Source of the DNA: Pyrinomonadales bacterium
GTDB taxonomy: Bacteria > Acidobacteriota > Blastocatellia > Pyrinomonadales > Pyrinomonadaceae
Length of the DNA: 64,000 nucleotides
Direction: 5' to 3'
Assembly: GCA_038200355.1 (NCBI GenBank)
Contig: JBBPXZ010000006.1
Coordinates: 9,954 to 73,953, forward strand
The translations under genes were made by a program, and so were the position numbers. Below are positions 1-59,580 of the stretch, in pieces; positions within the stretch are counted from its first letter, which is position 1, and the number at the start of each line of letters is the position of its first letter. The notes under the pieces are model-generated. The model worked only from the letters and a program-made list of their open reading frames with translations, made no database searches and was not told the DNA's origin.

Positions 1-788
1 CGAGCGGCAACCACGGAACGCCGGATTTGCCGAGCGCCATTACTCATTCGTGCGACGGTTATTATTATCGCCTGGCGCTGAAGATGAAGCTCGAAGGCTT
101 GATTCAGATGGCTGAAATGTTTGAATACGACAAGACGACCGGCGTCGATTTGCCGAATGAAAAAATCAGCCACACGCCGAAATATTTCGAGCCGTATATA
201 AAAAAACGCGACAACGGAAAATGGAACGACATCGAAACCGTGTTCGCTTCAATCGGGCAGGTTACGGTTGACGTTACGCCGATTTCGATGCTCCGCGCCG
301 TTGCGAGCGTCGGTGTGCAGGGCAGAATGTATGTTCCGCATCTGCTTAAAGAATTTAAGGCAATCGGCGCAATCGGCGAGGAAGGAGATAAAAGCTACGT
401 TCCGGCGCGGGCGGCTTTCGGCTTTAATCACACAGACCCGAAAATCATCGAAATGACGCCCGAACAAAACGCTTTTGTTTTAAAAGGAATGTGGGGCGTC
501 GTCAACAACGGCGGAACTGCCGGGCGCTTAAAGATGGCAAATTGGGAAATAGCGGGCAAAACCGGCACGGCGCAAAACTCGTCAATCGGTTCAGGCGGCG
601 CAAAAGACCACGCGTGGTTTGTGTCCTTTGCGCCGGCTTACAAACCGGAAATCGCCGTCATCGCGCTGATTGAAAATTCGGGTTTCGGCTCGTCCAACGC
701 CGCGCCCGTCGTCAAAGGTGTCTACGACGCGTATCTTTTGAAAACTCATCCCGAAATTTTGAGCGGGCAACAAGTGGCGGTGAAATAG
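1..788 (+). CDS. mrdA: penicillin-binding protein 2 (peptidoglycan D,D-transpeptidase), C-terminal part; 5' end lies outside the window
   Basis: The reading frame is open from the window edge to TAG at 786-788. It has the KTGTAQ and DHAWFVSFAP transpeptidase motifs, and rodA follows. Confidence 0.9.
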   Translation, partial: SGNHGTPDLPSAITHSCDGYYYRLALKMKLEGLIQMAEMFEYDKTTGVDLPNEKISHTPKYFEPYIKKRDNGKWNDIETVFASIGQVTVDVTPISMLRAVASVGVQGRMYVPHLLKEFKAIGAIGEEGDKSYVPARAAFGFNHTDPKIIEMTPEQNAFVLKGMWGVVNNGGTAGRLKMANWEIAGKTGTAQNSSIGSGGAKDHAWFVSFAPAYKPEIAVIALIENSGFGSSNAAPVVKGVYDAYLLKTHPEILSGQQVAVK

Positions 789-880
789 TTTGTAGAGTTT
801 TTAGGGTTCATAGAGTAAAAACATTTTCCTCCGCTCCAAAAACTCCAAAAACTCCAAAAACTCTATAAACTCTACAAACT
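788..880. repeat. 9-nt-periodic word hairpin in the mrdA-rodA spacer
   Basis: The left arm is TTTGTAGAG TTTTTAGGG TTCATAGAG. The right arm is CTCCAAAAA x3, CTCTATAAA, CTCTACAAA. The outermost words are perfect reverse complements. Confidence 0.8.
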
Positions 881-7593: not shown

Positions 7594-7692
7594 CCAATTA
7601 CGAATTATAAATTACGAATGACGAATGAGCAAATCGGAAAGCCAATTGCGAATTACGAATCGCCGGAAGTTTTCCCGTAATCGTAATTCGTA
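7594..7692. repeat. AATTACGAAT word array (7-nt period) with one inverted copy
   Basis: Direct copies are CCAATTACGAATTATAAATTACGAATGACGAATG and CCAATTGCGAATTACGAATCG. The inverted copy is CGTAATCGTAATTCGTAG. The same word recurs at 17141-17189, 33900-33979 and 52689-52718. Confidence 0.8.
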
Positions 7693-8483: not shown

Positions 8484-8592
8484 AAAAGGACAAAGGATAT
8501 TCTAAAAGGATAAAGGATAAAGGATAAGTTTAAGAAATATAATTGTAATTTTTACTACATCTCTACTTAATTTTTATCCCTTATCCTTTTTT
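8484..8592. repeat. 7-nt-periodic word hairpin (AAAGGAT / ATCCTTT words)
   Basis: The left arm is AAAAGGACAAAGGAT..AAAAGGATAAAGGATAAAGGATAAG. The right arm is TTTTTATCCCTTATCCTTTTTT, with a ~45-nt loop. Confidence 0.75.
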
Positions 8593-17034: not shown

Positions 17035-17126
17035 CGTTTCAAAAAACTGCTTCGGTTTTCTTTGCAGCTTTGCGCCTTTGCGGGAAAATATACCGCAAAG
17101 GCGCAAAGCATTTTTGAGACAGCCTC
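17035..17126. repeat. dispersed hairpin element (TTTGCGCCTTTGCGGG core, GTCTCAAAAA/TTTTTGAGAC termini), copy A
   Basis: The core is GCTTTGCGCCTTTGCGGgaaaatataCCGCAAAGGCGCAAAGC. It shares four blocks with 48425-48562, including GCATTTTTGAGACAGCCTC. Confidence 0.8.
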
Positions 17127-17189: not shown

Positions 17190-17190
17190 G

Positions 17191-17925: not shown

Positions 17926-18040
17926 TTTTTTGCAAACCGCCTTTTATTGTTTTAAGTGTAGGTTTCACCCGTAAAACCTGTCAAGAATTGAATAGTTTTT
18001 GTCAGGCGCGCTGTTCTGTCGATTAAAATTTTATAATGTT

Positions 18041-18143
18041 AGGACTTTCTCATTTTTGCAGAAGTCCGCACGATAGTTCGGCGCGATGATGATGAACAGA
18101 CACTTACTGACGTGCGTGTTTCCGCATTTTGAGAAAGTCCTGA
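18041..18143 (+). mobile_element. MITE-like / structured ~103-nt element, copy 2 (intergenic)
   Basis: It has the same termini and stems as 13346-13447. The flanks total 86 nt with 1 mismatch, and the core GATGATGATGAACAGAC contrasts with AACAGTGAAGCAACAC in copy 1. Confidence 0.75.
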
Positions 18144-18195
18144 GTGTATGTATGCGATAAAACGAGAATTGATTTTTCAACAATAGATTAACAGA

Positions 18196-18235
18196 GAAAA
18201 AGCGCAATTGACTAAAAATTCAATCGCGCTTTTTC
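18196..18235. terminator. intrinsic terminator after DUF1501 gene
   Basis: GAAAAAGCGCAATTGA-8 nt-TCAATCGCGCTTTTTC, with A/T runs on both sides. Confidence 0.75.
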
Positions 18236-18271
18236 CTGATTCAATTGTTTCCGGCGTCTCCGCAAACCGTT

Positions 18272-19750
18272 TTAAGGCTGCATAAAGCCGAGGTTACTGC
18301 TCGAAAAGTTTCCGAGGTTCGGGAAAACGAGCGGCATATCGGCTTCGGCGAGTCCATACCAGCGCGCCAGTGTCGCGGCGTATTGTTCGGCTGATGTGGT
18401 TGGAATCCAGCGCCCGCGCGCGTTTGCGCCGCTGTCGGCGTCGTCCGGTCCGTTCATCGCGAGAGTCGGAAAAGGCGTTCCGTTCGACGTGTTCGCGCCG
18501 TAGAAATCGCTGCCGGCAACCGCGCCGCCGATGACGAAAAGATGATTTGCCCACCCGTGGTCTGTGCCGACGCCCGCGCCCGAACCGGCGGGATTTAACG
18601 TGCGCGAGAAATCGGAAAGCGTAAAAGTCGTTACGTTATTGGAAACCCCCTGCGCGAGCATTTCGTCGTAAAAGGCGCGAACCGCCTGGCTGTATTGGGC
18701 GAGCAGCGTTCCCTGCCCGCTAATCTGGTTGTTGTGCGTGTCGAAACTGCCGACCTGCACATAAAAAATCTGACGGCTGACGCTCAAATCGGCGCGTTTT
18801 TTTATCAGCCTGGCAACCTGTTTTAATTGACTGCCGATGCTCGTCGTCGGAAAGGCGACGGTTACTTCCTGAAACGTCGCCAATGCCTGATTTGCCTGAA
18901 TCGCCTGGTCGGTGATATGGCTTGCCGCCTTGATGTAATCGGCGTTTAAATCCTGTGCGCGAAGTTCGTCGAAAGCCGCGAGACGGGCGCGTGAAGCGGT
19001 TGTCGTGTTAAATCCGGCGGGATTTAACACGTTGGTTAAAGATGTTCCGGCATTAGCGATTGCCAGCGGCAAAGTCGTCTGTCCGGCGGTAAAAAGCTGC
19101 GCGCCGTTTATCGACGTAATCATCGGAATCAGCCCGCCCGGATTATCGGAAAGCGTGCGCCGGTCGGAGATTCTGCCGCCCCAGCCGGTGAACGAAGGCG
19201 TGTCCGAACGTCCTGACTGATACTGCGCAACCTGGTCGGAATGCGAGAAAAGCTGAAACGGTTTGCGAATCGAATTGTTTTGATACTGCGCTCTGGTCAT
19301 CGGCGCGACGAGCGTTCCCGTGTTGGCGACGATTGCCATTTTGCCCTGCGCCCAAAGTTCGTGGATGCCGTTGTTCGTTCCGCCGGTTACAGCGCCGAAA
19401 TTCGGGTTCAGACCGTAAGTTAAATTGTTCATTCGCGGAACGGAAATCGGCAAAAGGGAATTTTGCGTGATTGCCAAGCCCTGCGAAGCGCGCGCGTTTG
19501 CGTAAGCTGTGTAGTTGCTGACGTTCACGTCCGCGTGATTCGGAATAACGGTATTGTTGCCGTCGTTTCCGCCCTGCATAAAAATACAAACCAGAGCGCG
19601 GTAATCGCCGGACGCATCGGGCGCGCTCGCGTCTTCGACTTTCTGCGCCATCGCGCTCATTAAACCGAAATGTTCAAACTGCGTGGCGAGCGCCGCCATT
19701 CCAAGCGCGCAAGTCGATTTGGTTAAAAATTCACGTCTCGATGTTGTCAT
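18272..19750 (-). CDS. Tat-exported DUF1501 family protein (sulfatase/alkaline-phosphatase-like fold)
   Basis: It has the twin-arginine signal MTTSRREFLTKS, typical DUF1501 blocks (CIFMQGGNDGNN, SFDTHNNQ, GTDHGW) and an AAGGAG RBS. Confidence 0.85.
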   Translation of the reverse strand: MTTSRREFLTKSTCALGMAALATQFEHFGLMSAMAQKVEDASAPDASGDYRALVCIFMQGGNDGNNTVIPNHADVNVSNYTAYANARASQGLAITQNSLLPISVPRMNNLTYGLNPNFGAVTGGTNNGIHELWAQGKMAIVANTGTLVAPMTRAQYQNNSIRKPFQLFSHSDQVAQYQSGRSDTPSFTGWGGRISDRRTLSDNPGGLIPMITSINGAQLFTAGQTTLPLAIANAGTSLTNVLNPAGFNTTTASRARLAAFDELRAQDLNADYIKAASHITDQAIQANQALATFQEVTVAFPTTSIGSQLKQVARLIKKRADLSVSRQIFYVQVGSFDTHNNQISGQGTLLAQYSQAVRAFYDEMLAQGVSNNVTTFTLSDFSRTLNPAGSGAGVGTDHGWANHLFVIGGAVAGSDFYGANTSNGTPFPTLAMNGPDDADSGANARGRWIPTTSAEQYAATLARWYGLAEADMPLVFPNLGNFSSSNLGFMQP

Positions 19751-19760
19751 ATCTCTCCTT

Positions 19761-19863
19761 AAGAGTTCTCAGAGTTCGTAGAGTTTGTAGAGTAAAGGAA
19801 TTCTTTCGACTCTACGAACTCTACGAACTTCACGAACTCCATAAACTCTATAAACTCTTAGAA
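19761..19863. repeat. 9-nt-periodic word hairpin inside the DUF1800-DUF1501 operon
   Basis: The left arm is AAGAGTTCT CAGAGTTCG TAGAGTTTG TAGAGTAAA. The right arm is ACTCTACGA x2, ACTTCACGA, ACTCCATAA, ACTCTATAA, ACTCTTAGA. It belongs to the same word family as 788-880. Confidence 0.8.
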
Positions 19864-22035
19864 CTATCTTTGCACTTGATACTGCGAAGAACTCGCCGTC
19901 AGATAAATTGCCGTCTTCGCGCGCGTTAAAGGGTCGGTTGCCGGAGTTGCCAGAACCGCCGTCAGAATCGTGTTTTTCATCTGCGCGGACATTGTGCCGT
20001 GCATCATTTTCGCGTTTAAGAAATCGAGCAGCTGATTGCCGGAAGCGTCGAGCGACGAGAGCGCCTGCGTTTCCGTAAAATCAATCGAAGTGCCGAACGG
20101 CGCGTTGGTCGAATTGCCGTTGACGCGGCTGAAGACGAACGTGTTTATAAAATTGGCGCGGGCGATTGCCGTTCCGGTTGTCATAATGCCGAATTCGGGA
20201 CCGTTTAACGCCGTTCCGGGAACTGTGTAATCGGGCGAATAATAATTGAAAACCGTCGGCGAGTTAAACGCGTTTTGTCCCATCGTCGCGACCTGCGGAT
20301 TGACGTAGCCGTCGCTGTCCGCCGCGCCGTCGGCTGAACGCACGTTGAATTGACGGAAAAGATTCGTCGCCAATTGAACCGGCTCGCGGAGCTTGCCGTA
20401 ATTCGGGTCGGTTTTAACGCTGCCGCGCGCTTCCGGGTCGAGCAGAATCGCCCGGACGACGGCTTTCAAATCGCCGCGCGCGTTTGAACCGTTGTTGTTG
20501 AAAACCGCGGCGACGCGTCCGACAAACGCGGGCGTCGGGTCGCTCGCAACCATCTGCTGAATCAAATAGCGGCTGACGAACGGCGCGACGTTCGGATGAT
20601 TGAAAATATTGTCGAGCGCCTGATTCATCTCGGTCGCGCCGCTTGTGTTCGCCGCGATTGTCGGGTTGACGGCGTTCGGATACGCGAGCAGAGTTTTAGC
20701 CGTAACGTCGTGATTGTTTTGGTTCAAAATCATCGGGTCTTTGTAATTCGGCGCGCCCAAAGTCGAATTCGGGCAGCCGGTGTTGCACAAAGTCCAGCCG
20801 GTAAAAACCTTCGTAAAATTATTAACCGTCGTCTGGTCGTAAGTCGGAATTGGGCTGCCGTTTTGGTCGCGCTGCAAAGTTCCATCTTGATTGAGCATAA
20901 AAAGTCCGACCGAAAAAAGCTGCAAAATCTCGCGCGCGTAGTTTTCGTTCGGGTTGTTTTTCGTGCTGCGAACCATATCGAGATAATTGCCCATCGCCGG
21001 ATTGAGCGTGATGTCAGTCATCAAGTTGCGGTAATTGCCGAACGCGTTCTGCGACAATTTCCGGTGATAGGCAACCATATAACTCGACTGCTGCGTATCG
21101 ACGCCGGAGACGACCCACAATTGGCTCAGCGCCCACGCGACGCGGTGTTTTAACTGCGCGTCGCCGTAAAACGCTTCCTTGTAAAACCAGTTCTGCATTC
21201 CATACATCGTGTAATGGTCGCGCTGGCAGTTGACGGGAATATTGTTTTGACAATCGGTGGAAACGTTCGACGGCATCAGCGGCAGATTCGGGTAAGGATA
21301 AGTCGGATACGCGGCTTCAAATTGTTCGTCGAGCCAGCCGCGCAAACCAGAGCGCCGGATTTTCAATTCCAGTTTCCGACTCGGACCGAAAGTCGCCTGT
21401 TCCATAAATCGAACGCGGTCGCCCGCGTGCGTATACTCTGCAAAATTCCGCTCCGGCGCGTTTGCGGCTTTTTTGGCGTCTGTGTTTGCCGAAGCCGCGA
21501 GCATCGTCTCGGCGTCGTCTTTGATATTTCCGCCGATTTTGCCGATTCCCAGTCTTAAACGTTTGCTCGTCATTCCGCGCCAGGCGACACTGACCAAAAC
21601 GTCGCCGTCGAAAATCGTGTTTTCCCAGAATCCGGTTTCGTCGGTCAACCGGACAATCAGCGCGTAGACGCCCGTTTGATTTTGCAGCGGTTCGATTTTC
21701 AGAACCGGAAAGCGATACCGCCTGCCCGTTTCGTCTTCGGCGGAGACACGAAAAGCGCTTGCGTCTTCACCGGGCATCAGCGAAACGCCGGTTACGAAAA
21801 GCAAAATTTTTGAACCGGCGGGAAACGCGCGATTTCTGATTTTTGTCAGCCTGACGCGTTCCGGGTTATTTGCCGAAACAGCCAGAGCGCGGGTCGGATT
21901 CGGCTGGCTTAATAAAACCGGCGACGGTGAGTCGGTGTCTGAATCATCCTGCGCCGAAACCGAAAACGCGAGCAGAAAAAACACGAATCCGATGCTTAAA
22001 ATGTGCCGTAAGAAGCGCTCTCTCTGGCTTTTCAT
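19864..22035 (-). CDS. DUF1800 family protein with signal peptide and extra ~190-aa N-terminal Ig-like region
   Basis: 723 aa with the C-terminal ~500 aa colinear with DUF1800. It is followed by DUF1501, which is the canonical pairing. Confidence 0.8.
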   Translation of the reverse strand: MKSQRERFLRHILSIGFVFFLLAFSVSAQDDSDTDSPSPVLLSQPNPTRALAVSANNPERVRLTKIRNRAFPAGSKILLFVTGVSLMPGEDASAFRVSAEDETGRRYRFPVLKIEPLQNQTGVYALIVRLTDETGFWENTIFDGDVLVSVAWRGMTSKRLRLGIGKIGGNIKDDAETMLAASANTDAKKAANAPERNFAEYTHAGDRVRFMEQATFGPSRKLELKIRRSGLRGWLDEQFEAAYPTYPYPNLPLMPSNVSTDCQNNIPVNCQRDHYTMYGMQNWFYKEAFYGDAQLKHRVAWALSQLWVVSGVDTQQSSYMVAYHRKLSQNAFGNYRNLMTDITLNPAMGNYLDMVRSTKNNPNENYAREILQLFSVGLFMLNQDGTLQRDQNGSPIPTYDQTTVNNFTKVFTGWTLCNTGCPNSTLGAPNYKDPMILNQNNHDVTAKTLLAYPNAVNPTIAANTSGATEMNQALDNIFNHPNVAPFVSRYLIQQMVASDPTPAFVGRVAAVFNNNGSNARGDLKAVVRAILLDPEARGSVKTDPNYGKLREPVQLATNLFRQFNVRSADGAADSDGYVNPQVATMGQNAFNSPTVFNYYSPDYTVPGTALNGPEFGIMTTGTAIARANFINTFVFSRVNGNSTNAPFGTSIDFTETQALSSLDASGNQLLDFLNAKMMHGTMSAQMKNTILTAVLATPATDPLTRAKTAIYLTASSSQYQVQR

Positions 22036-31445: not shown

Positions 31446-31534
31446 GCCCGCGAAACACACGAAACACACGAAAGAAAAATATATCGAGTTTATTTTCATT
31501 CCTTTTTCGTGTTCTTTCGCGTTCTTTCGCGGGC
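31446..31534. repeat. 9/10-nt-periodic word hairpin (CGAAACACA / TTCTTTCGCG words)
   Basis: The left arm is GCCCGCGAAACACACGAAACACACGAAAGAAAAA. The right arm is CCTTTTTCGTGTTCTTTCGCGTTCTTTCGCGGGC. Confidence 0.75.
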
Positions 31535-33387: not shown

Positions 33388-33390
33388 AAA

Positions 33391-33444
33391 GGAGCGCGGA
33401 CTTTAGTCCGCTTCTTATGCGATGCCAACTAAAGTCCGCGCTCC
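33391..33444 (+). terminator. long hairpin after the hydrolase gene
   Basis: GGAGCGCGGACTTTAGT-20 nt-ACTAAAGTCCGCGCTCC. The left arm itself contains the palindrome GCGGACTTTAGTCCGC. Confidence 0.65.
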
Positions 33445-33614
33445 TTTGCGGCGGCAGCTTTTAACTTGAAAAGTGTTTTCCGCCTGCGAAGTTCTAACGC
33501 AAAACCTTGACAGATGTAGAGTTAGGTCATTATCATTGCTGTTGCGGGCAAACGGAAAAAGTTTTTGTTTCAACATTTTCTATATTTTCTATAATTCTGT
33601 AAAAGGACGTAAAT

Positions 33615-33896
33615 ATGATTAAACTCGATATTGTAAATCGCGTGGCGGACAAAACCGGCGTGCCGAAACAAAAAGCCGAACAGGTGGTTGACGCGCTTTT
33701 TAACGCGATGAAGGACGCGCTGGCGCAGGGCAAACGCATCGAGCTGCGCGGCTTCGGCGTTTTCGTCGTCAAAGCCAGAAAGCGCGGCATCGGGCGCAAC
33801 CCGCGCACCGGAGCGGAAGTGCCGATTCCGGCTGGAAAAACCATTCGCTTCAAACCGGGAAAAGAGCTTCAGGCGAAAACGGTCGGGAAGAAATAG
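33615..33896 (+). CDS. HU/IHF family DNA-binding protein
   Basis: 93 aa with the beta-arm motif GFGVFVVKARKRGIGRNPRTGAEVPIPAGKTIRFKPGKEL. Confidence 0.92.
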   Translation: MIKLDIVNRVADKTGVPKQKAEQVVDALFNAMKDALAQGKRIELRGFGVFVVKARKRGIGRNPRTGAEVPIPAGKTIRFKPGKELQAKTVGKK

Positions 33897-33899
33897 CAT

Positions 33900-33979
33900 A
33901 AATTACGAATTGCGAATTACCAATTACGAATGTCGAAATTGTTTTTAACTTGTAATTCGTAATTGATTATCCGTAATTT
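33900..33979. repeat. AATTACG word hairpin (7-nt period) between the HU/IHF and M50 genes
   Basis: The left arm is AAATTACGAATTGCGAATTACCAATTACGAATG. The right arm is CTTGTAATTCGTAATTGATTATCCGTAATTT. Confidence 0.78.
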
Positions 33980-37959: not shown

Positions 37960-38460
37960 ATGAAAACGATTTTTCTTCTGCGCCACGCCAAATCGAGCTG
38001 GGAAGACGATAATCTGGCTGATTTCGACCGACCGCTCAACAGGCGCGGGCTTGAAATTATTCCGCTCGTCGGCGAAAAAATCTACGGCGACAAGTTTCAA
38101 ATCGACCTGATTCTGTCGTCGCCCGCAAAGCGCGCCGAACAAACCTCGATTTTAATAAAGGAAGCGGCGCGGCTCGATGCCGAAATTCATTATGACGAGC
38201 GAATTTACGAAGCCAGCCCGCGCCGTCTTCTCGAAGTCGTTTCCGGGACGACCGAAAACGCCGATTCGATTATGCTCGTCGGACACAATCCGGGACTCGA
38301 AGGGTTTATAAAAACTTTAACCGGCGAAACTCAATCAATGGAAACGGCAGCTTTAGCCGTCGTCGATTTGCGAATCGAGCTTTGGAACGAGACCGACGCC
38401 GGCTGCGGTTTCGTCCGCCGAATGATTAGCCCGAAAAGTGATTTGCAGGCGTGGGAATAG
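37960..38460 (+). CDS. sixA: phosphohistidine phosphatase SixA
   Basis: 166 aa with the RHG motif LLRHAKS and GHNPGLE. Confidence 0.85.
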   Translation: MKTIFLLRHAKSSWEDDNLADFDRPLNRRGLEIIPLVGEKIYGDKFQIDLILSSPAKRAEQTSILIKEAARLDAEIHYDERIYEASPRRLLEVVSGTTENADSIMLVGHNPGLEGFIKTLTGETQSMETAALAVVDLRIELWNETDAGCGFVRRMISPKSDLQAWE

Positions 38461-38554
38461 GTTTTAGGTTTTAGGTTTTAGGTAAAATAAATTCTTGCCT
38501 AAAACCTAACCCCTGAAACCTAAAACCTGTTCCCTGAAACCTAAAACCTAACCC
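38461..38554. repeat. 7-nt-periodic word hairpin (GTTTTAG x3 versus a CCTAAAA/CCTGAAA/CCTAACC array x8)
   Basis: It starts immediately after the sixA stop, and its right end overlaps the rluD stop codon. Confidence 0.85.
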
Positions 38555-39492
38555 TTTATCAATTGGAGAAAATCCATTAATTCCGGCGGCAGCGGCGCGT
38601 AGAACTCCAATCTTTCAGCGGTTTTCGGGTGCGTGAAACTTAAACGTTCGGCGTGCAGGAAAAATCTTCCCAACTCTTTAATCGCCTGACGAATCGTTTC
38701 GTCTTTCATATTGTTGTCGCGCCCGCCGTTGTAGGTTTCGTCGCCGACGACCGGATGATTTATATGCGCTAAATGCACGCGGATTTGATGCGTTCTGCCG
38801 GTTTTTATCTCGACGTTGAGCGACGTGAAACGCTCGTATCTTTTGCGAACCTGCCACAAACTCAAAGCTGCGCGCCCGTGTCCGCGTATCGCCATCTTCG
38901 TCCGGTTGTGTTTTTCGCGCGCAATCGGCTGGTCGATTTTTCCGCTTTTTTCCTGGATTTCGCCGTGAACCAGAGCGACATACGATTTGAAAACTTCGCG
39001 ATTTCTAAATTGTTCGCTCATCTGTTCGTGAATTTCTTCATTTTTTGCAATGACAATCAAGCCCGAAGTATCTTTATCGAGCCGATGAACGATGCCGACG
39101 CGATTTTCAAACTTTGAATCTTCGACCTGTAATTTGAAATGAAACGCGACGGCGTTGGCAAGCGTTCCGCCGTGGACGCCCGCGCCGGGATGAACGACCA
39201 TTCCCGCCGGTTTATCGATAACGGCGAGATATTCGTCTTCAAAAACGACGGCGAGCGGAATGTTTTCCGGCTCGAAAGTTTCGACGACGGGCGCGGGCAA
39301 TTCGATTTCGATATGGTCTCCGGTGCGAACTTTGTGAGAAGATTTCGCCGCGGTTTCGTTAACCGTAACATCGCCGTCGGCGACGACCTTTTGCAGACGA
39401 ACGCGACTCCAATCGGCGATATTTTCGGCAAGGAAAGCGTCGAGGCGTTTGCCCGCGTCGGTTTCGGACGCCTGAAAAGTTAGATATTCCAT
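38548..39492 (-). CDS. rluD: 23S rRNA pseudouridine synthase (RluA family, RluD-like)
   Basis: It has an N-terminal S4 domain, the catalytic motif HRLDKDTSG and the GRTHQIRVH motif. Confidence 0.92.
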   Translation of the reverse strand: MEYLTFQASETDAGKRLDAFLAENIADWSRVRLQKVVADGDVTVNETAAKSSHKVRTGDHIEIELPAPVVETFEPENIPLAVVFEDEYLAVIDKPAGMVVHPGAGVHGGTLANAVAFHFKLQVEDSKFENRVGIVHRLDKDTSGLIVIAKNEEIHEQMSEQFRNREVFKSYVALVHGEIQEKSGKIDQPIAREKHNRTKMAIRGHGRAALSLWQVRKRYERFTSLNVEIKTGRTHQIRVHLAHINHPVVGDETYNGGRDNNMKDETIRQAIKELGRFFLHAERLSFTHPKTAERLEFYAPLPPELMDFLQLIKG

Positions 39493-41685: not shown

Positions 41686-41761
41686 AAATTCGGATAAGTT
41701 TTATAACTTGCTGAGAAACTTAGTCTAGCAAACCATTTATCTTTTGGGAAAATTGTTAAAA

Positions 41762-41860
41762 GCAGCCAATAGTGAATAGTGAACATTGAAAGCGGGAAGC
41801 AAATACAATTAGTTGGACGAATTCTTCACTTTTAGTTTTTCACTATTCACTATTGACTGC
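41762..41860. repeat. 7-nt-periodic word hairpin (AGTGAAT words) between clpB and grpE
   Basis: GCAGCCAATAGTGAATAGTGAA pairs with TTCACTATTCACTATTGACTGC as a ~22-bp stem with one mismatch and a ~50-nt loop. Confidence 0.8.
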
Positions 41861-41862
41861 CT

Positions 41863-44460
41863 TTAAGCCGCCGTCGCCGTCGCTTCGGGCGTAAATTTCA
41901 GCTTGCCGTCGCCGCTCGCGGAAACGCGCAGAATGCTTCCGTTTGAAATCTCGCCGTTAAGGAGTTTGACCGCCAGCGGATTTTGAATCAGCGTTTGAAT
42001 TGCCCGCTTTAAAGGGCGCGCGCCGAACGTCGGGTCGTAGCCTTCTTCGACGAGCAGCTCTTTCGCCGAATCGTCTAAAACGATTTGAATTCCGCGTTCG
42101 CCGAGCGTTCCGCGCAGGCGTTCAAGCTGAACTTCAATAATGGCTGCAATCTGCTCACGCGCCAATTGTTTGAAGACGACAATATCATCTATTCGGTTCA
42201 AAAACTCCGGTTTGAAATAATCGCGCAGCACTTGCGTAACGGCTTCGCGCATCTGTTTATCGTCGCTGCCGATTGATTGAATTTCACGCGAACCCAGATT
42301 CGATGTCATAATCAAAACCGTGTTTTTGAAATCCACGACGCGCCCTTTAGAATCCGTAAGTCGCCCGTCGTCAAGTATTTGCAGCAGAATATTGAACACG
42401 TCCGAATGCGCTTTTTCGATTTCGTCAAACAGCACGACGGAATACGGACGCCGCCGCACGGCTTCCGTAAGCTGCCCGCCTTCTTCATAACCGACGTATC
42501 CCGGCGGCGCGCCAACCATTCTGGCAACTGCGTGTTTTTCCATATATTCCGACATATCGAGCCGGATGAGCGCCCGTTCGTCGTCGAACAGAAATTCGGC
42601 TAAAGCCTTTGCCGTCTCGGTTTTACCGACGCCCGTCGGACCTAAAAAGATAAACGAGCCGACCGGACGATTCGGGTCTTGAAGTCCGGCGCGGGCGCGG
42701 CGAACCGCATTGGCAACCGCTTCGAGCGCTTCGTCCTGACCGATAACCCGTGAGCGCAGTTTGTCTTCCATCGTAACGAGCTTCTGCATCTCGCCTTCGA
42801 GCATTTTGGAAACCGGAACGCCCGTCCATTTGGCGACGACTTCCGCCACGTCTTCCTCATCAACTTCTTCTTTGAGGAAAACGCCGTCGGTTTGCAGTTC
42901 CGACAAATGATGCTGCTCGCCTTCGATTTGTTTTTCGAGCGTCGGAATCGTGCCGTATTGCAGTTCGGCGGCTTTATTTAAATCACCGGCGTTTCGCGCC
43001 TGCTCCAATTCCAGCCTGGCTTGTTCGAGCTTTTCCTTGCCGCCGCGCATCTTCTCGATTTCGTCTTTTTCCGACTGCCATTGCGCCTTCATTCCGCCGG
43101 ATTGCTCCTGCAAATCGGCAATTCGTTTTTCGATGTCTTCGAGCCGCGATTTAGATTTTTCGTCCGTTTCGCGCTGTAAAGCCTGGCGCTCGATTTCAAG
43201 CTGCAAAATTTCGCGCTCCAATTCGTCAATCTCCTGCGGCAGAGAATCGATTTCGATTCGGATTTTCGACGCCGCTTCGTCAATCAAATCAATCGCCTTG
43301 TCGGGCAGAAACCTATCGGTAATATAACGATTTGAAAGCGTCGCGGCGGCGACAATCGCCGAATCTTTGATGCGAACGCCGTGATGAACTTCGTAGCGTT
43401 CTTTCAAACCTCTGAGAATCGCAATCGTATCTTCGACATTCGGCTCGCCGACAAAAACGTTTTGAAAACGCCGTTCGAGCGCTTTGTCTTTTTCGATATA
43501 TTTCTGGTATTCGTTCAAAGTCGTCGCGCCGACGCAGCGCAGCATTCCGCGGGCAAGCGCCGGTTTGAGCATATTCGACGCGTCAATCGCGCCTTCGGAC
43601 GCGCCCGCGCCGACTAATGTGTGCAGTTCGTCGATAAACAAAATTATGTTTCCGTTGGCTGCTTCGATTTCCTTCAAAACGGCTTTTAAGCGGTCTTCAA
43701 ACTCGCCGCGATATTTCGCGCCCGCCAGCATCGAACCCAAATCCAAGCCGACAAGTCGTTTGCCTTTAAGAGTTTCCGGCACGTCGCCCGAAATGATTCT
43801 TTGCGCCAAACCTTCGACAATCGCCGTTTTACCGACGCCCGGCTCGCCGATTAAAACCGGATTATTTTTCGTTCTGCGGGATAAAACCTGAATCGTTCTT
43901 CTGATTTCGTCGTCGCGCCCGATTACCGGGTCGAGCTTTCCTTTTCTGGCTCGTTCAGTCAAATCCAGCGCGTATTTTTCGAGCGCCTGAAAGTTTTCTT
44001 CGGCGTTCTGGTCGGTGATTCGGCTGCCGCCGCGCATATCGGTTACAACTTTTTCAACGTCTTCTTTTGTAACGCCGTTCGAGCGCAAAATGCGTCCGGC
44101 ATCGCCTTCTTTCTCGTCGGCAATCGCCATCAAAATATGCTCGGTCGAAGTATATTCATCGCGCATTCGCTCGGCTTCTTTTTGGACAGCCTGAAAAATC
44201 GTGTTTGTCCGTGAGCTGAAATACTGCTGACCGCCGGAAACTTTCGGAAATTTAGCGATTGCCGCTTCGATTTCACTCTCTACGGTCGGAACGTTCGCGC
44301 CAATTTTTCCGAGAATCGGACGAACGACGCTTTCCTTTTGTTCGAGCATCGCGGCGAGCAGGTGTTCCGGCTCGACCTGTTGGTTCTGATTTTTTTCGGC
44401 AACGCCGATTGCCGCCTGAATCGCTTCCTGCCCGCGAATGGTAAATCTGTCGAATCTCAT
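41863..44460 (-). CDS. clpB: ATP-dependent disaggregase ClpB
   Basis: 865 aa with a Clp_N domain, D1 Walker [10 protein letters not shown], a long M-domain coiled coil and D2 Walker [10 protein letters not shown]. Confidence 0.97.
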
Positions 44461-44717
44461 AAGTTCTTATAAACTCCGTAAAAATATTGCTTAGTGTTAT
44501 TCAATAATAAAACCTGAGTGTCTTTCTGTCAAATATTTTCGTTGAAATATTGCTCCGTCAAATTAAAGATACGACTTTTCAGATGACACTTTTCGATTTG
44601 AAAGGTATATTTACAAAGCAGATTTATTTAATCCGAAAAAGAATTTCCACAAATTGACAACGCGAGGCTGCCGAAAAGTCATTGTAAATTTGCGGCTGCG
44701 TCTCTGTTCAAATAAAA

Positions 44718-45809
44718 ATGAAAATTTTACGAGAAATCTTATCGCCCCTCGCCGCGATTTTTGCCGCGTTTGTCGTCGGCGGAATTTTAGTTTTATTAAT
44801 CGGCGACAATCCTTTTAATACGTTTCGCTTGCTGCTCGGCAACTCGTTCGGCTCGGCGAAAGACATCGGCTACACGCTCTTTCTGGCGACGCCGCTGATA
44901 TTTACGGGCTTGGCGGTAATGGTCGCTTTTCGGTGCGGGCTTTTGAACATCGGCGCGGAAGGTCAGCTTTATGTCGCGTCGTTTGCAACCGCTTGGGTCG
45001 GAATCGTTTTCGGCGGAACGGTCGTCAATGTTTTCGGCGCGGACGTAAATTATTCGTGGATGTCGCTTCCGGCGATTCTGCTTGTTCCGCTCTGCATTTT
45101 AACGGCGATGGTCGTCGGCGGAATCTGGGGCGCGATTCCGGGCGTTTTGAAAGCGAAATTCGGCTCGCACGAAGTAATCAACACGATTATGCTGAACTTT
45201 ATCGCAATCGCGTTAGTCAGTTATTTTACGCAATACCATTACAAAGTCGCGGGCGACCCGATTCTGCAAACCGCGCCGATTGGCAAAGCCGCATACATTC
45301 CGCAATTAAATCAATTTCTGCCTTTCATTCCGGCTGACGTGCCTTTAAGCGTCGCGTTTCTGCTGGCGATTCTGATGTGTTTTCTGGTTTATATATTTTT
45401 ATGGAAAACCAAATGGGGCTACGAATTGCGCGCCGTCGGCGAAAACGCTTCGGCGGCTGAATACGGCGGAATTTCGCCGCAAAAACAAATCGTCATTGCG
45501 ATGACGCTTTCCGGCGCGCTTGCCGGAATGGTTGCAATCGGCGAAGTCCTCGGTTATCGCCACCGATATTACGACGCGTTTTCGGGCGAAGTCGGTTTTC
45601 TCGGAATCGCCGTCGCGCTTCTCGGCAGAAATCATCCGCTCGGCGTTTTCGTCGCCGCGTTATTCTTCGCGGTTTTACAGCGCGGCGAAATTTTCGTTGA
45701 CGCTTTTACGCCGCACGTTTCCAAAGACATCGGCTGGGTTTTGCAGGCGATTATTATTTTATTCGTCGCGTGTTTTCAAATTTACTCGAAAAAACGAGGT
45801 AAAATATGA
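44718..45809 (+). CDS. ABC transporter permease, BMP/nucleoside (YufP/NupB-like) family
   Basis: 363 aa polytopic protein. It overlaps the next permease by ATGA. Confidence 0.82.
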   Translation: MKILREILSPLAAIFAAFVVGGILVLLIGDNPFNTFRLLLGNSFGSAKDIGYTLFLATPLIFTGLAVMVAFRCGLLNIGAEGQLYVASFATAWVGIVFGGTVVNVFGADVNYSWMSLPAILLVPLCILTAMVVGGIWGAIPGVLKAKFGSHEVINTIMLNFIAIALVSYFTQYHYKVAGDPILQTAPIGKAAYIPQLNQFLPFIPADVPLSVAFLLAILMCFLVYIFLWKTKWGYELRAVGENASAAEYGGISPQKQIVIAMTLSGALAGMVAIGEVLGYRHRYYDAFSGEVGFLGIAVALLGRNHPLGVFVAALFFAVLQRGEIFVDAFTPHVSKDIGWVLQAIIILFVACFQIYSKKRGKI

Positions 45810-46714
45810 ACGAAATTTTTACCGCCGCACTACTTTTTTCGGCGATTCGCCTTGCGACGCCGTTGATTTTCGCGGCGCTCGGCGGAATGTTTTCCGAGCG
45901 TTCGGGCGTTATCAACATCGCGCTCGAAGGCTTGATGCTGGCGGGCGCGTTCACGGGCGCGGTTGTAACTTATGAAGCGGGAAATCCGTATCTCGGCTTG
46001 CTTGCCGGAATGCTGGCGGGCGCGCTTTTGGCGTATGTTCACGCGGCTGCGTGTATTAAATTTGAAGCCGACCAGGTTGTTTCGGGAATGGCGATAAACT
46101 TTCTGATGATTGGAATTCCGTCGGTTATCAGCGGCGCGATTTACGATTCTTCGGGTTCGACGCCGCAAATCGCCAAGGAACATCTGCTGCCCGAATTTTT
46201 CAATCGCCTGTCGCTGGCGTCGATTCTGGCTTTCGCGCTCGTTCCGGTCTGCTGGTATGTTTTGTATAAAACGCCGTTCGGCTTGCGTCTTCGCGCTACG
46301 GGTGAAAATCCGGCGGCGGCGGACGCGGCGGGCATCAGCGTTTCGCGTATTCGTTATACCGGCGTCGTTTTATCGGGAATCTTAGCAGCGGCGGGCGGCG
46401 CGTATCTGTCAATCGGGCAAAGCTCTTTGTTCACAAGAAATATGACCGCCGGACGCGGATATATCGCGCTGGCGGCGCTGATTTTAGCAAAATGGCGTCC
46501 GGTTCAAACGCTTCTCGCGTGTCTGTTTTTCGGTTTGATGGAAGCGCTGACAATCCAGATACAAGGCGTTTATAAACTGCCGTCGGGCGAAGATATTCCG
46601 ATTCAGTTTATCCAAATCATTCCGTATGTTCTGACGATAATCGTTCTCGCCGGTTTCATCGGCTTGTCGCGCGCGCCGAAATCGCTCGGCGTTCCATACA
46701 GAAAAGAGAAATAA
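45806..46714 (+). CDS. ABC transporter permease, BMP/nucleoside (YufQ/NupC-like) family
   Basis: 302 aa polytopic protein, translationally coupled to the previous gene. Confidence 0.82.
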   Translation: MNEIFTAALLFSAIRLATPLIFAALGGMFSERSGVINIALEGLMLAGAFTGAVVTYEAGNPYLGLLAGMLAGALLAYVHAAACIKFEADQVVSGMAINFLMIGIPSVISGAIYDSSGSTPQIAKEHLLPEFFNRLSLASILAFALVPVCWYVLYKTPFGLRLRATGENPAAADAAGISVSRIRYTGVVLSGILAAAGGAYLSIGQSSLFTRNMTAGRGYIALAALILAKWRPVQTLLACLFFGLMEALTIQIQGVYKLPSGEDIPIQFIQIIPYVLTIIVLAGFIGLSRAPKSLGVPYRKEK

Positions 46715-46799
46715 TTCAAAGTTCAAAGTTGGAAAATTTCAACATAATTTTGAATCTCGAATTCTGAATCTCGAACCTTAAACTTTGAATTTTGAACTT
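46713..46799. repeat. 7-nt-periodic word hairpin (TTCAAAG / CTTTGAA, CTCGAAT words)
   Basis: The left arm is AATTCAAAGTTCAAAGTTGGAAAATTTCAA. The right arm is TTTTGAATCTCGAATTCTGAATCTCGAACCTTAAACTTTGAATTTTGAACTT. Confidence 0.78.
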
Positions 46800-46803: not shown

Positions 46804-47676
46804 ATGACTTACGAAAACGCATTTGAAGCGGCTGAATTTATCCGCTCGAAATACGATAAGGAAATAAAAGTCGCGCTTGTTTTGGGCAGCGGTTTGGGCG
46901 CATTCGGCGAGGAAGTCGAAAACGCGGTGCGTATTCCTTATGAGCAGATTCCGCATTTTGCGCTCTCGACCGTCGAAGGACACGCCGGACAGTTGGTTTT
47001 GGGCGAAGTCGCGGGCGTGTCCGTCGCGGTTCAGCAGGGACGCTTTCATTATTACGAAGGCTATGAGATGAGCGAGGTAATTTTTCCGGTGCGTGTTTTC
47101 GGGCTTCTCGGCGTGAAAAGTTTGATTTTAACGAACGCGGCGGGCAGCGTCGATACGGATTTTAAGCAGGGAACTTTGATGCTGATTCGAGACCATCTGA
47201 ATTTGATGGGCGTCAATCCGCTGCGCGGCAGAAACGACGAGCGTTTCGGCGCGCGCTTCCCGGATATGACGGAAGTCTACGCGCTCGATTATCAGGAAAT
47301 CGCGCTCGCCGCCGCCCGCGCGATGGCTGATGAAAAAAACAAAGCCGACGAAGAAAGAACCGGAAAAAAACAGCTGAAACCGAGAATTCTGCGGCGCGGC
47401 GTCTATTGCGGATTGTCGGGACCGACGTATGAAACGCCGTCGGAAATTCGTATGCTGCGAATGCTCGGCGCGGACGCCGTTGGAATGTCAACCGTCCCCG
47501 AAGCGATAACGGCGCGGCAGATGGGCATCAAGGTTCTGGGAATCTCCTGCATCACGAATATGGCGGCGGGAATCTCGGACGAGCCGATTCATCACGAAGA
47601 AGTTATAGAAACCGGCGCGCGCGTCGCGGCGACGTTTAAGGAATTATTGAAAGGAATAATTCCGAAATTGGACTAG
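46804..47676 (+). CDS. purine nucleoside phosphorylase (trimeric PNP-I type)
   Basis: It has VLGSGLG, STVEGHAG and GLSGPTYETPSEIRMLRMLGADAVGMSTVPE motifs. I placed the start at MTYENAF. Confidence 0.9.
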   Translation: MTYENAFEAAEFIRSKYDKEIKVALVLGSGLGAFGEEVENAVRIPYEQIPHFALSTVEGHAGQLVLGEVAGVSVAVQQGRFHYYEGYEMSEVIFPVRVFGLLGVKSLILTNAAGSVDTDFKQGTLMLIRDHLNLMGVNPLRGRNDERFGARFPDMTEVYALDYQEIALAAARAMADEKNKADEERTGKKQLKPRILRRGVYCGLSGPTYETPSEIRMLRMLGADAVGMSTVPEAITARQMGIKVLGISCITNMAAGISDEPIHHEEVIETGARVAATFKELLKGIIPKLD

Positions 47677-47777
47677 CCACAGAGGACACAGAGTTCACAA
47701 AGGCTGCAGAAGAATTTTTATAATACTTTAGAAAATTCTTTGCCTTTTCTCTCTGTGAACTCTGTGAACTCTGTGGC
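47676..47777. repeat. 9-nt-periodic composite hairpin (CACAGAGTT / AACTCTGTG words)
   Basis: GCCACAGAGGACACAGAGTTCACAAAGG pairs with CCTTTTCTCTCTGTGAACTCTGTGAACTCTGTGGC. There is an inner stem AGAAGAATTTT / AAAATTCTTT. Confidence 0.8.
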
Positions 47778-48424: not shown

Positions 48425-48562
48425 GCGTCTCAAAAATAGTGATTCAACAAAAATGCTTCGGTTTTTCTTTGCCGCTTTTGCGCCTTTGCGGGAAAGTTTA
48501 TTGTTTCCCGCAAAGGCGCAAAGCTCGCAAAGTTTAAGGCAGAGCATTTTTGAGACAGCCTC
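48425..48562. repeat. dispersed hairpin element (TTTGCGCCTTTGCGGG core), copy B
   Basis: GTCTCAAAAA...TGCTTCGGTTTTTCTTTGCCGCTTTTGCGCCTTTGCGGGAAA...CCGCAAAGGCGCAAAGC...GCATTTTTGAGACAGCCTC. It ends 9 nt before the cdd ATG. Confidence 0.8.
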
Positions 48563-51957: not shown

Positions 51958-52725
51958 TTAAGGCTGGTCGATGCTTCGGTTAGCGCCTCTTCTGCCTTTG
52001 GTGTCGCGCGTTCTCGACGCGGCGCTGCCGCCGAACCCGCGAAAAAGCGGCGTGAAAATCCATTTGCTGTGATTTTCGATGCCGTAATAAGACAGAACCG
52101 ATTTACTGCGGCTCTGGCTGGCGACGCCGATAAACGGCGTATCTTCGGTCGTTATCTCGATTTCCGATTCGTCGGCTTCTTCGGTGTCGCTTTCGCTTTT
52201 CGTATTGATAATATTCGTCAGAGAAACGGCGTAGCGGTCGAAATACTGTCGCGGGTCGGACGACGGCAGCAAGCCGTTATTGTATGTCTGCACGCGTTTG
52301 CCGAAACTTATAAATGCTTGACTGTCCGGTTTTATCAAGCGCCATTTGCCGTCTTCCGACAGCGGGTCAACCGCCGCCGAAGGTCTCAGAATCTGACGTT
52401 TTTTCGTTCCGTAAGGCACGCCTTCGAGCAGGTCGTCCATCGAGCGGGGAAGTTTCGCGCCGCGATAAGCGATAACGTATTGTTTGATGGCTTCGGCGAC
52501 TTCCTCGCCGCGCCTGATTGATTCGAGTTCGCGCTCGCGCTGAACGCCCTGCTGAACGGTCGGCGCGACCGCCAGAAGCCCGATAGCGAAAATAGTCATC
52601 ACCGCCAGAACCGCCAGCAGAGACATACCGCTTTCGCCTCGCGGAGCGCTCGCCGCTTTAAGAAGCGCGGTTTGCGGCTTTTGCAGCTCGTAATTCGTAA
52701 TTCGCAGTTCGTAATTCATTTTCAT
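51958..52725 (-). CDS. prepilin-like / type II secretion pseudopilin-like protein (start uncertain)
   Basis: It has the leader-like ..APRGESG|MSLLAVLAVMTIFAIGLLAV but no Glu at +5. The following ..RERELESIRRGEEVAEAIKQY.. block resembles GspG/GspK-type minor pseudopilins. Confidence 0.6.
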   Translation of the reverse strand: MKMNYELRITNYELQKPQTALLKAASAPRGESGMSLLAVLAVMTIFAIGLLAVAPTVQQGVQRERELESIRRGEEVAEAIKQYVIAYRGAKLPRSMDDLLEGVPYGTKKRQILRPSAAVDPLSEDGKWRLIKPDSQAFISFGKRVQTYNNGLLPSSDPRQYFDRYAVSLTNIINTKSESDTEEADESEIEITTEDTPFIGVASQSRSKSVLSYYGIENHSKWIFTPLFRGFGGSAASRTRDTKGRRGANRSIDQP

Positions 52726-58524: not shown

Positions 58525-59313
58525 ATGAAGACGAAAAAATCTTTCCTTGCGGTTTTACTGCTTTGCGGCTTGTTCTGCTTTTCGGCGGCGGCGCAGATTC
58601 AGCCGAAAATCGAATCTTACAAAACGGGCGAAAGTCTCGTCTATGAAGCAAAATTCAACCGCGCCGTGCTGCGCGGAATCGAAATCGCCGCTGTAAGTTT
58701 CGCGGTCGAAAAATCGCCGGATAACCGGAACTTTCTCGTCAAAACCAAAGCCGAATCAAAAGGCACGTTAAGCGGACTCGTTCTGCCGGATTTTCTGCAA
58801 AGCTACGAATCGACCGTTGACGGCAAAAATTTTTCGATTCTCAGAACCGTCAAATACGACCGGCAAGGCGAGCGCGTGCGCCGGAGTCGCGCAGATTTCG
58901 ATTATAAAGCCGGAAAAGTCGTTTATACGGAAACAGACCCGAACAACGCCGCCCGCCCGCCGCTTCTGGCTGCCTCCGGGATTGAACCCGGAATGCAGGA
59001 TTTAGTCTCAGCCATATACGCGCTCAGGCGTCTGCCGCTTGCCGTCGGAAAAAGCTTCGAGATAAAAGTCAGCGATTCCGGTTTGGTTTATACGATTCCC
59101 GTGCGTGTAACCGCGCGACAGCGGCAAAGAAGCGCCTTCGGAAAAGTTTGGTGTTTTCAGGTCGAGCCGGAAATTTTCGGGAAAAATCGTCTGATTGAAA
59201 AAGACGGAACGATGATTATCTGGATAACCGACGACGCCCGCCGCCTGCCGGTTCGCTCGCAAATCAACAGCAATATCGGGCGAATCGAGGTTAAGCTCAA
59301 ACGTAATAAGTGA
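58525..59313 (+). CDS. DUF3108 domain protein (exported)
   Basis: It has a signal peptide (MKTKKSFLAVLLLCGLFCFSAAAQ) and a DUF3108-like beta-barrel pattern. I placed the start at ATG 58525, 2 nt after the previous stop. Confidence 0.78.
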   Translation: MKTKKSFLAVLLLCGLFCFSAAAQIQPKIESYKTGESLVYEAKFNRAVLRGIEIAAVSFAVEKSPDNRNFLVKTKAESKGTLSGLVLPDFLQSYESTVDGKNFSILRTVKYDRQGERVRRSRADFDYKAGKVVYTETDPNNAARPPLLAASGIEPGMQDLVSAIYALRRLPLAVGKSFEIKVSDSGLVYTIPVRVTARQRQRSAFGKVWCFQVEPEIFGKNRLIEKDGTMIIWITDDARRLPVRSQINSNIGRIEVKLKRNK

Positions 59314-59388
59314 TAGATGATAACTGATAACTGATAAGTAAAGAATTTGCTTTTACTTATCACCTATCACCTATCACCTATCACCTAC
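59308..59388. repeat. 7-nt-periodic word hairpin (GATAACT / ACCTATC words)
   Basis: The left arm is GTGATAGATGATAACTGATAACTGATAAGTAAAG. The right arm is CTTTTACTTATCACCTATCACCTATCACCTATCACCTAC. The DUF3108 stop codon lies inside the left arm. Confidence 0.8.
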
Positions 59389-59511: not shown

Positions 59512-59580
59512 ATACGGTTGCGGCAGAGCAGCGCGAATATCTGCCAATCTTATAAAACAATTTCTCTTTTGGAGAGCAGA

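Follow-up and report, generated by a model that had tools for sequence, protein, structure and literature searches.

The 64,000-nt stretch of a Pyrinomonadales genome analyzed here (contig JBBPXZ010000006.1; hereafter, the window) contains, in the spacers between its genes, long hairpins whose arms are arrays of short tandem words, the word on one arm and its reverse complement on the other. An initial annotation of this DNA had listed 11 such loci, with the sixA/rluD spacer as the exemplar. All 11 indeed fold as a single long hairpin with arms of tandem 7- or 9-nt words (Table 1), with stems of 24-40 pairs and loops of 9-44 nt. The list was incomplete, as two period-8 hairpins, at 17060-17110 and 48467-48532, were missing; these belong to one sequence family. 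In the exemplar, the left array is read by TRF as (TAGGTTT)x3.7 with 100% identity and the loop comprises 14 nt. Its minimum free energy (MFE) is -45.7 kcal/mol, versus -18.8 +/- 2.8 kcal/mol in 200 dinucleotide shuffles, none of which was as stable. For the window loci, spacer folding compared with dinucleotide shuffles gave z values of -2.8 to -10.5; the exception is 46715-46791 (z = -1.6), because the spacer coordinates clip the arms.

The gene annotated at 33570-33899 (-) is spurious, the real gene being that for HU at 33615-33896 (+), and with this correction a stop codon precedes every window copy. As the initial annotation had noted, copies often lie between co-directional genes, in the window 10 of 11, including the operon-like pairs mrdA-rodA and DUF1800-DUF1501. 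Periodic hairpins from all loci are distributed over co-directional (36), convergent (15), divergent (10, several of them robust) and genic (8) positions; the median distance to the upstream stop codon is 8 nt and that to the next start codon 22 nt.

Table 1. Tandem-word hairpins of the window and heptamer hairpins inside the rluD coding sequence; z, folding relative to shuffled sequence
Feature	Coordinates	Words (left / right arm)	Position	z
Period-9 hairpin	787..880	AGTTTGTAG / CTCCAAAAA-CTCTATAAA	whole mrdA (PBP2) to rodA spacer, overlapping mrdA stop codon	-7.0
Period-7 hairpin	7594..7692	AATTACG	begins 2 nt past enoyl-CoA hydratase (-) stop; ends 5 nt before tRNA-Ala (7516-7588, -)	
Period-7 hairpin	8484..8592	AAAGGAT / ATCCTTT	occupies PilZ (-) to enoyl-CoA hydratase (-) spacer	
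Period-8 short hairpin	17060..17110	CTTTGCGC x2.9 / GCGCAAAG	GC-rich; convergent junction	
Period-9 hairpin	19761..19863	AGAGTTCGT x3.6 / ACTCTACGA x5.6	occupies DUF1800 (-) to DUF1501 (-) spacer; ribosome-binding site of downstream gene comes right after	-7.5
Period-9/10 hairpin	31446..31534	CGAAACACA / TTTCGCGTTC (cross-species GCCCACGAAAYACACGAAA family)	40 nt past Zn-peptidase gene (-) stop	
Period-7 hairpin	33900..33979	AATTACG x4.4 / CGTAATT, then T9	directly 3' of HU gene (33615-33896 +)	
Exemplar, period 7	38453..38554	(GGTTTTA)x3.7 at 38458-38483; loop 38484-38497 / CCTAAAA-type words x7.7 at 38498-38554	occupies convergent SixA/RluD spacer, overlapping rluD stop codon	-9.68
Period-7 hairpin	41756..41866	AATAGTG / TTCACTA	right after ClpB (-) stop; 77 nt before grpE (-)	
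Period-7 hairpin	46713..46799	TTCAAAG x2.3 / AATTTTG-CTTTGAA x7.3	occupies permease (+) to PNP (+) spacer	
Period-9 hairpin	47676..47777	CACAGAGTT / CTCTGTGAA x2.8	PNP (+) to uridine kinase (+) spacer	-10.5
Period-8 hairpin	48467..48532	CTTTGCGC / CGCAAAGCG	3' of uridine kinase gene	
Period-7 hairpin	59307..59388	TGATAAC x4.6 / TATCACC x4.3	overlaps DUF3108 (+) stop codon; subtilase gene 118 nt further on	
rluD-internal hairpin	window 39052-39165 (-)		in-frame within rluD	
rluD-internal hairpin	L010, L025 10322-10471		in-frame within rluD	
rluD-internal hairpin	L048 6857-7009		in-frame within rluD	
rluD-internal hairpin	L022 10322-10450		in-frame within rluD	

Relatives of its RluD protein assign the window to the Pyrinomonadaceae (Acidobacteriota, Blastocatellia). 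We pooled the window with 53 related Pyrinomonadaceae loci (840 kb in total) and counted tandem arrays against Markov-1 control sequence. Period-7 arrays numbered 285 versus 45 in the control, and those with an inverted partner 86 versus 0. The corresponding counts were 39 versus 4 and 22 versus 0 at period 9, and 22 versus 19 and 8 versus 0 at period 8; a Lachnospiraceae outgroup locus contained no such arrays. Tandem arrays formed the arms of 73 of the 166 strong ungapped inverted repeats in the pooled sequence (44%), with periods of 7 (50 repeats), 9 (15), 8 (5), and 10 (3) nt, whereas shuffled arms attained a comparable periodicity threshold in 1.5% of trials. Repeats in the inverted-repeat finder set had a median arm of 30 nt, a median stem GC of 0.37, and a median loop of 16 nt. 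Since this finder needs gap-free arms, gapped copies, for example those at 7594 and 31446, escape it. A strict pairwise array detector returned just five window pairs, the arms being imperfect, and the lag-identity threshold misses some true periodic copies. We conclude that the architecture is real, family-wide and far beyond chance, with both periodicity and folding exceeding the controls.

Concerted word changes on both arms, for which the initial annotation had proposed to look, were evident when orthologous spacers were aligned (L-numbers denote comparison loci). Behind the HU gene, the window and L002 both have AATTACG in different copy numbers, L005 and L017 have AATCGYN words, and in L053 both arms consist of 8-nt units (AATTACGA / AATTTCGT), a shift from period 7 to period 8; the T-tract behind the hairpin is conserved. 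Behind rluD, the word of the exemplar is retained in L005. L014 and L030 use ACGGAAA there and L023 uses ACGGTAA, in 2 to >5 copies, with both arms changed to match. These comparisons directly support unit slippage with pairing maintained on both arms. Behind rluD in L053, the closest relative, stands a palindrome that is not periodic and belongs to the family of window 33388-33447. The members of this REP-like family (REP, repetitive extragenic palindrome) are perfect palindromes (AAAGGAGCGCGGACTTTAGTCCGC...), found in L053 at ~335-400 and also 3' of rluD in L022, L024, L026, and L043. Behind ClpB, a hairpin is present in 11 of 11 relatives with unrelated sequences, even in L016, which has 94% ClpB identity. 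The exemplar is identical in L001, the sole contig with an identical RluD, and no copy-number polymorphism is visible there; no record of the exact HU protein was found.

In the window and several relatives, rluD itself contains a heptamer hairpin (GGATTTC... / ...GAAATCC), which lies in-frame in the coding sequence and is bounded by the GTLANA and GIVHRLD motifs (Table 1). The segment from GTLANA to HRLD is at its minimum in the window (93 nt, FKLQVEDSKFEN), a length that several relatives share; elsewhere it measures 99-174 nt, always a multiple of three. Its folding energy reaches -66 kcal/mol, and the low-complexity loops encoded by it include IRNPKSEIRN.

The junction between the genes for PNP and uridine kinase (Udk) is found in four states: no spacer (L018), the 9-mer hairpin of the window, a different 9-mer hairpin (L031), and an ORF-bearing element (L004, L015). 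The latter is ~450 nt long, with arms of (GGTTTTT/AGTTTTT)n and (AAAAACC/AAAAACT)n, words one base off the exemplar word GGTTTTA, and its loop encodes a 133-aa protein matching PF05635, "23S rRNA-intervening sequence protein" (E = 1.4e-29). This ORF also matches XCC0516, the PF05635 protein of PDB 2GSC. In L047, inverted heptamer arrays of the GCCAGAA and CTTCTGG type likewise flank a further PF05635 gene (28% identical), situated between lspA and lgt.

We then carried out a census of PF05635 genes in metagenomes, comparing the 160 nt upstream and downstream of 76 testable genes for an inverted repeat. An inverted repeat brackets 64 of the 76 (84%; contig or locus GC 0.29-0.68), and arms with a period of 7 or 8 nt are found in 54 (71%), with words such as GTCAGTA, TTGGCTG x13, GGTGATT x8, and ATTGTTAA; a strict criterion applied to both sides retains 19 of 76. 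Related PF05635 proteins tend to have a word in common, ATTGTTAA being one example. No bracketing inverted repeat was found for any of 25 non-adjacent neighboring genes. Among control Pyrinomonadaceae genes, 10 of 699 (1.4%) are bracketed, four of the 10 periodically, and the three periodic ones of at most 160 aa are probably the three PF05635 genes themselves. The PF05635 genes are co-oriented with both neighbors in 44 of 52 loci, and start at a median of 58 nt past the upstream stop codon. ORF-less periodic hairpins also occur in the metagenomic PF05635 loci (seven in 200 kb), three of them with the word of the adjacent PF05635 element (L075, L087, L134).

The arms of these elements intrude on neighboring genes. 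In L068 and L069, both from metagenomes, the DHFR (folA-like) gene that follows a PF05635 element takes its ATG from CCAATGA, the word of the element's downstream arm, so arm words can turn into functional start codons. Arm words lengthen neighboring ORFs in the case of lspA in L047 and of cas4 in Anabaena. The Anabaena locus (L136; plasmid pANA02 of Anabaena sp. 90, 43095-45812) has a PF05635 gene ("four helix bundle protein") that is flanked by (GGTGACA)n and (TGTCACC)4 and interrupts a type I-D CRISPR-Cas operon between cas6 and cas4, with the downstream array in the annotated cas4 N-terminus. The PF05635 genes of Pseudanabaena and Calothrix plasmids had no arrays or one-sided arrays only.

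Parts of this architecture have been described before. The 23S rRNA intervening sequence (IVS) of Coxiella carries an S23p ORF and a 28-bp terminal inverted-repeat stem that is cut by RNase III, and strains differ in having two or three GACAGAT units adjoining the stem (PMC4990558). The same excision by RNase III is cited for Salmonella, Leptospira, and Alphaproteobacteria, and the ORF is decaying in some strains (PMC4990558). The S23p/PF05635 ORF is found in the IVS of Coxiella and Leptospira, and IVSs without an ORF exist in Salmonella, Yersinia, and Campylobacter. The likeness consists of a long terminal inverted-repeat stem, adjoining heptamers, and an optional ORF. The differences are that IVSs are inserted in 23S rRNA helices, whereas the present copies lie between protein genes and once within a coding sequence; that the present arms are made of tandem words on both sides, with many different words; and that the window loops contain no ORF. 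No rRNA was found in the window with Rfam 15 at gathering score, where only two tRNAs matched. Experimental demonstration of RNase III cleavage is confined to 23S rRNA IVS stems; for the window stems it is a prediction.

Inverted pairs of heptamer arrays are known from Xanthomonas, where Rehm et al. 2015 counted 186 and 183 GGGAATC arrays in two genomes, with 70-75 convergent inverted pairs per genome (PMC4692102). About 90% of those arrays are intergenic, on average 28 nt behind the upstream ORF, they are rarer at divergent junctions, and they vary in length and sequence between sister species (PMC4692102). In the supplement to that study, array #15 spans the start codon of XCC0516 (PMC4692102), the PF05635 gene matched by our L004/L015 ORF. 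An array with a nearby reverse-complement array, intergenic and close behind the upstream ORF, is common to both systems, but the Xanthomonas arrays belong to a single G-rich word family studied as a G-quadruplex former. The present hairpins, in another phylum, the Acidobacteriota, comprise 134 canonical heptamers in the pooled loci along with 8- and 9-mers, mostly without G-runs (by inspection, few of the heptamers have G3 runs). Heptanucleotide repeats more generally are, according to Mrazek 2007 as recounted in PMC4679880, the most abundant class of long simple-sequence repeats (SSRs), with polymerase slippage proposed as their origin. These SSRs, including the short tandemly repeated repetitive (STRR) sequences of cyanobacteria and TAACTGA of Beggiatoaceae, resemble the present arrays in being intergenic tandem heptamers of sporadic phylogeny for which slippage has been proposed. 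They are described mainly as direct arrays (169 direct sets and one inverted for TAACTGA; PMC4679880), whereas inverted pairing into a hairpin defines the present elements. The view that the hairpins represent an undescribed class thus holds only in part, given the precedents of the GGGAATC inverted pairs and the Coxiella IVS heptamers. The link to PF05635 was unexpected; a full-text literature search of incomplete coverage returned nothing connecting PF05635 genes with tandem-word inverted flanks, which is absence of evidence only.

The words themselves were said to be unrelated between loci, with only the architecture in common. They are diverse, as the 134 heptamers attest, but some belong to families whose ends are conserved and which turn up repeatedly, both in one genome and in different ones. 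AATTACG is found at four window loci (7594, 33900, 52688, and 17143), and the hairpins at 788 and 19761 have ~22 nt in common (CTCCAWAAACTCTATAAACTCT). Repeat copies with conserved ends occur in L017 (TTCGGAATA...TATTCCGAA, twice) and L018 (ATTAACAGGGATGAAG, twice). Between species, the GCCCACGAAA and GCCCACGAAAYACACGAAA families recur, as does a period-9 CACGAAAYA word with GCCCACG ends. A loop motif, ~GAATTCTT, seen in five window loops was considered as a further common feature and rejected; it is not general among 58 hairpins and mostly reflects small inner palindromes.

PF05635 genes have periodic inverted arms in hosts that differ widely in composition, and neighboring genes do not; periodicity is therefore a property of the element and not of one host's mutation spectrum. 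A local generative mechanism, as proposed in the initial annotation, is in keeping with the slippage-type dynamics seen in the orthologous spacers, but the occurrence of the same arms at PF05635 genes across bacteria argues against a purely local, host-specific process. With periodicity assigned to the element, the most economical interpretation, to which we give about an even chance, is that the window hairpins belong, as members without an ORF, to a widespread class of IVS-like stem-loops whose full-length members carry a PF05635 gene, comparable to the ORF-less IVSs and to the decaying S23p ORF of Coxiella.

A full-length element would consist of a PF05635 gene, encoding an Avd-like four-helix bundle, between inverted arms of tandem 7- or 8-nt words. 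We infer that the elements are mobile. They sit wedged in spacers, for the most part those of co-directional genes, and in many cases reach the stop codon upstream or the start codon downstream. Upon transcription within the host operon, the arms would pair as double-stranded RNA of ~25 bp or more and be cut by RNase III, a cleavage that the host could tolerate nowhere but in rRNA helices or between cistrons. Arms of tandem words could pair in several registers, so that slippage of a unit in one arm would be nearly neutral and the stem could grow, shrink, or drift. ORF-less copies would arise by loss of the ORF or by spreading on their own, and a hairpin followed by a U-tract, such as that behind the HU gene, would double as an intrinsic terminator. 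The wedged position, the co-orientation of the ORF-bearing forms, and stems of at least 25 bp fit dependence on host read-through and tolerance where cleavage is harmless. By analogy with the 23S IVSs, the hairpins are probably RNase III substrates, and among the functions suggested in the initial annotation a role as processing sites is, on the same analogy, the one that appears best supported.

Several observations weigh against this interpretation. The connection between the window hairpins and PF05635 is through architecture, a common junction, and common word families, not through direct descent: no PF05635 gene was detected in the window by tblastn, and the exact overlap of PF05635 arm heptamers with Pyrinomonadaceae words is weak (2 of 6 versus 0.7 expected). 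At least eight word families in 64 kb are hard to square with sequence-specific mobilization by one protein, and no target-site duplication was seen at the inspected copies, where the periodic arms leave the boundaries ambiguous. Some 44% of the heptamer arrays in intergenic DNA lack an inverted partner closer than 110 nt, and therefore a general heptamer-slippage bias also exists. At divergent junctions and within the rluD coding sequence, cutting by RNase III would serve no purpose or do harm; for copies there, an element that is selfish or neutral at the DNA level is a better fit than any one RNA function. Finally, the sense strand folded more stably than the antisense strand in only 4 of 10 window copies, and over all co-directional copies there was no bias (15 versus 18; Wilcoxon p = 0.15), which gives no evidence for selection on sense-strand RNA structure. 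The 3' arm has more C than G in 25 versus 8 copies, but we rejected this as a sign of polarity relative to transcription, as it is also found in non-periodic hairpins; the purine-first order of a palindrome is the same on both strands and is uninformative about gene direction.

The chief competing explanation, which we regard as possible although on the unlikely side, is that these are ordinary 3'-end hairpins (terminators, attenuators, or mRNA stabilizers) that have grown by lineage-specific 7-nt (and 9-nt) slippage together with templated or compensatory arm change, PF05635 genes merely lodging there. The median position 8 nt past the upstream stop codon, the presence of a hairpin behind ClpB in 11 of 11 relatives despite unrelated sequences, and the conserved T-tract behind HU would all be expected of such hairpins, as would flanks with A upstream and T downstream and purine-first arms, both of which are the same as in non-periodic hairpins. 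Slippage was already proposed for the heptamer SSR excess in Mrazek 2007 (as recounted in PMC4679880), and many heptamer arrays are unpaired. Rho-independent terminators, which the present hairpins resemble in their position past stop codons, their purine-first arms, and the T9 at 33900-33979, nevertheless have a short GC-rich stem, a 3-8-nt loop, and a U-tract, whereas the stems here are 25-40 bp and AT-rich with loops of 9-44 nt. As the initial annotation had observed, most copies lack a U-tract, a T-run of at least four being found in 11 of 36 co-directional copies. A terminator scan was barely above shuffles (50 versus 42 expected) and called none of the four hairpins in 1-20000. The hairpin behind HU is terminator-like, an exception among the window copies, and separate canonical GC-rich terminators with A and T tracts are present in the window, mostly at convergent junctions. 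Growth from ordinary 3' ends also sits poorly with the copies inside the mrdA-rodA and DUF1800-DUF1501 pairs, the copy 5 nt from a tRNA gene, the 10 copies at divergent junctions, and the periodic arms at PF05635 genes over a locus GC range of 0.29-0.68, versus none of 25 neighbors.

Mobile families of the REP type (including BIMEs, bacterial interspersed mosaic elements, and REPINs, REP doublets forming hairpins) or of the type of MITEs (miniature inverted-repeat transposable elements), each with its own word and moved by a REP-associated tyrosine transposase (RAYT) or an IS200/IS605 TnpA encoded elsewhere, are in our view quite improbable. Such families are likewise intergenic hairpin repeats, often past stop codons and in operons, and are in part multicopy. 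The conserved-end families of L017, L018, and window 788/19761, the cross-species GCCCACGAAA family, the unrelated hairpins at one junction in close relatives (L016, and L053 versus the window), and the empty site in L018 are all in line with mobility of this kind. The present elements nonetheless have internally periodic arms whose interiors vary by word units and not by point divergence from a master copy, and 134 canonical heptamers are too many for family-specific transposases. At the inspected copies there was no common target sequence to accompany the missing target-site duplications, and no transposase was found among ~30 window ORFs scanned against Pfam. The loci do not collapse into one known REP or MITE family, as the initial annotation had foreseen: no 20-40-nt REP/REPIN-type consensus emerged, words differ by locus, only small families recur, and there is no Rfam family match. 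Least probable are phased DNA- or RNA-binding arrays for a multimeric protein (such as the PF05635 pentamer or some nucleoid protein) with the hairpin secondary: inverted tandem identical words do resemble the subterminal binding-site arrays of transposons, PF05635 proteins are homopentameric and related to Avd, and related ones tend to have a word in common, but words vary by locus within one genome without matching protein diversity, periods of 7, 8, and 9 nt occur side by side, and arm complementarity is upheld by concerted change, which suggests that pairing and not word identity is what is kept.

We also noted several features near or within the hairpins. Within the hairpin at 7594-7692, a variant word creates on the minus strand, by eye, a TATAAT with TTGCTC 17 nt upstream; the promoter of tRNA-Ala may lie inside this hairpin, although a consensus promoter scan did not list the candidate. 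In the spacer upstream of grpE (window ~41690-41760, minus strand), a motif, GATAAATGGTTTGCTAGACT-N-CAGCAA...TTATC, is kept in all relatives (L002-L037 spacers) between the variable post-ClpB hairpin and grpE and may represent a heat-shock operator or 5'-UTR structure. An orthologous period-7/14 hairpin (ATTTATC ATTTAAC) in L012 (5089-5162) and L014 (2815-2886) lies 2 nt from a start codon, with a canonical terminator on the other side and no room for a separate ribosome-binding site. The CTTTGCGC period-8 hairpins are nested in an outer inverted repeat, GTCTCAAAAA ... TTTTTGAGAC, at 4613-4720, 17035-17125, and 48425-48549, an arrangement that looks like a composite dispersed element. At 52688-52717, a direct AATTACG x3.4 array without an inverted partner occupies the annotated 5' end of ORF 51958-52725 (-), a prepilin-like gene (N_methyl motif); either the array encodes an in-frame NYELRIT repeat or the start is mis-called. 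Lastly, an 18-nt tandem repeat (x8.3, also scored at periods 36 and 54) at 61956-62104, in the C-terminal part of the subtilase ORF 59506-62142, encodes a repeated hexapeptide that matches a left-handed-beta-helix Pfam entry weakly.

Beyond the reading of the window hairpins as ORF-less relatives of PF05635 elements, we raise, as a rather doubtful extension, the notion that tandem-word hairpins and PF05635 genes form one hitherto unrecognized cross-phylum class of selfish "intercistronic intervening sequences". Insertion would take place into rRNA helices or between genes that are co-transcribed, and host RNase III, in place of splicing, would remove the elements from the transcript. The word would be the unit in which arms are built and renewed, possibly through the action of the pentameric PF05635 protein, and ORF-less stems would be left behind. 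The PF05635 family is homopentameric (PMC4990558) and resembles Avd, the accessory protein of diversity-generating retroelements, and this kinship makes a nucleic-acid-handling role plausible. If true, the existence of this class would explain the heptanucleotide SSR excess in Xanthomonas, cyanobacteria (STRR), Beggiatoaceae, Bacteroidota, and Acidobacteriota. That excess, and the origin and function of IVSs and S23p, have been open questions for decades and are handled separately in the literature consulted; the arrangement (word)n - [PF05635 ORF or nothing] - (reverse-complement word)n offers a testable link between them. Should the link hold, intercistronic RNase III cuts, binding of the PF05635 protein to its own words, and a correlation of hairpin load with PF05635 copy number would be expected. 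For the Acidobacteriota, the hairpins will mislead the prediction of terminators, operons, and start codons, because the arms overlap stop and start codons and, even in rluD, form in-frame low-complexity loops.

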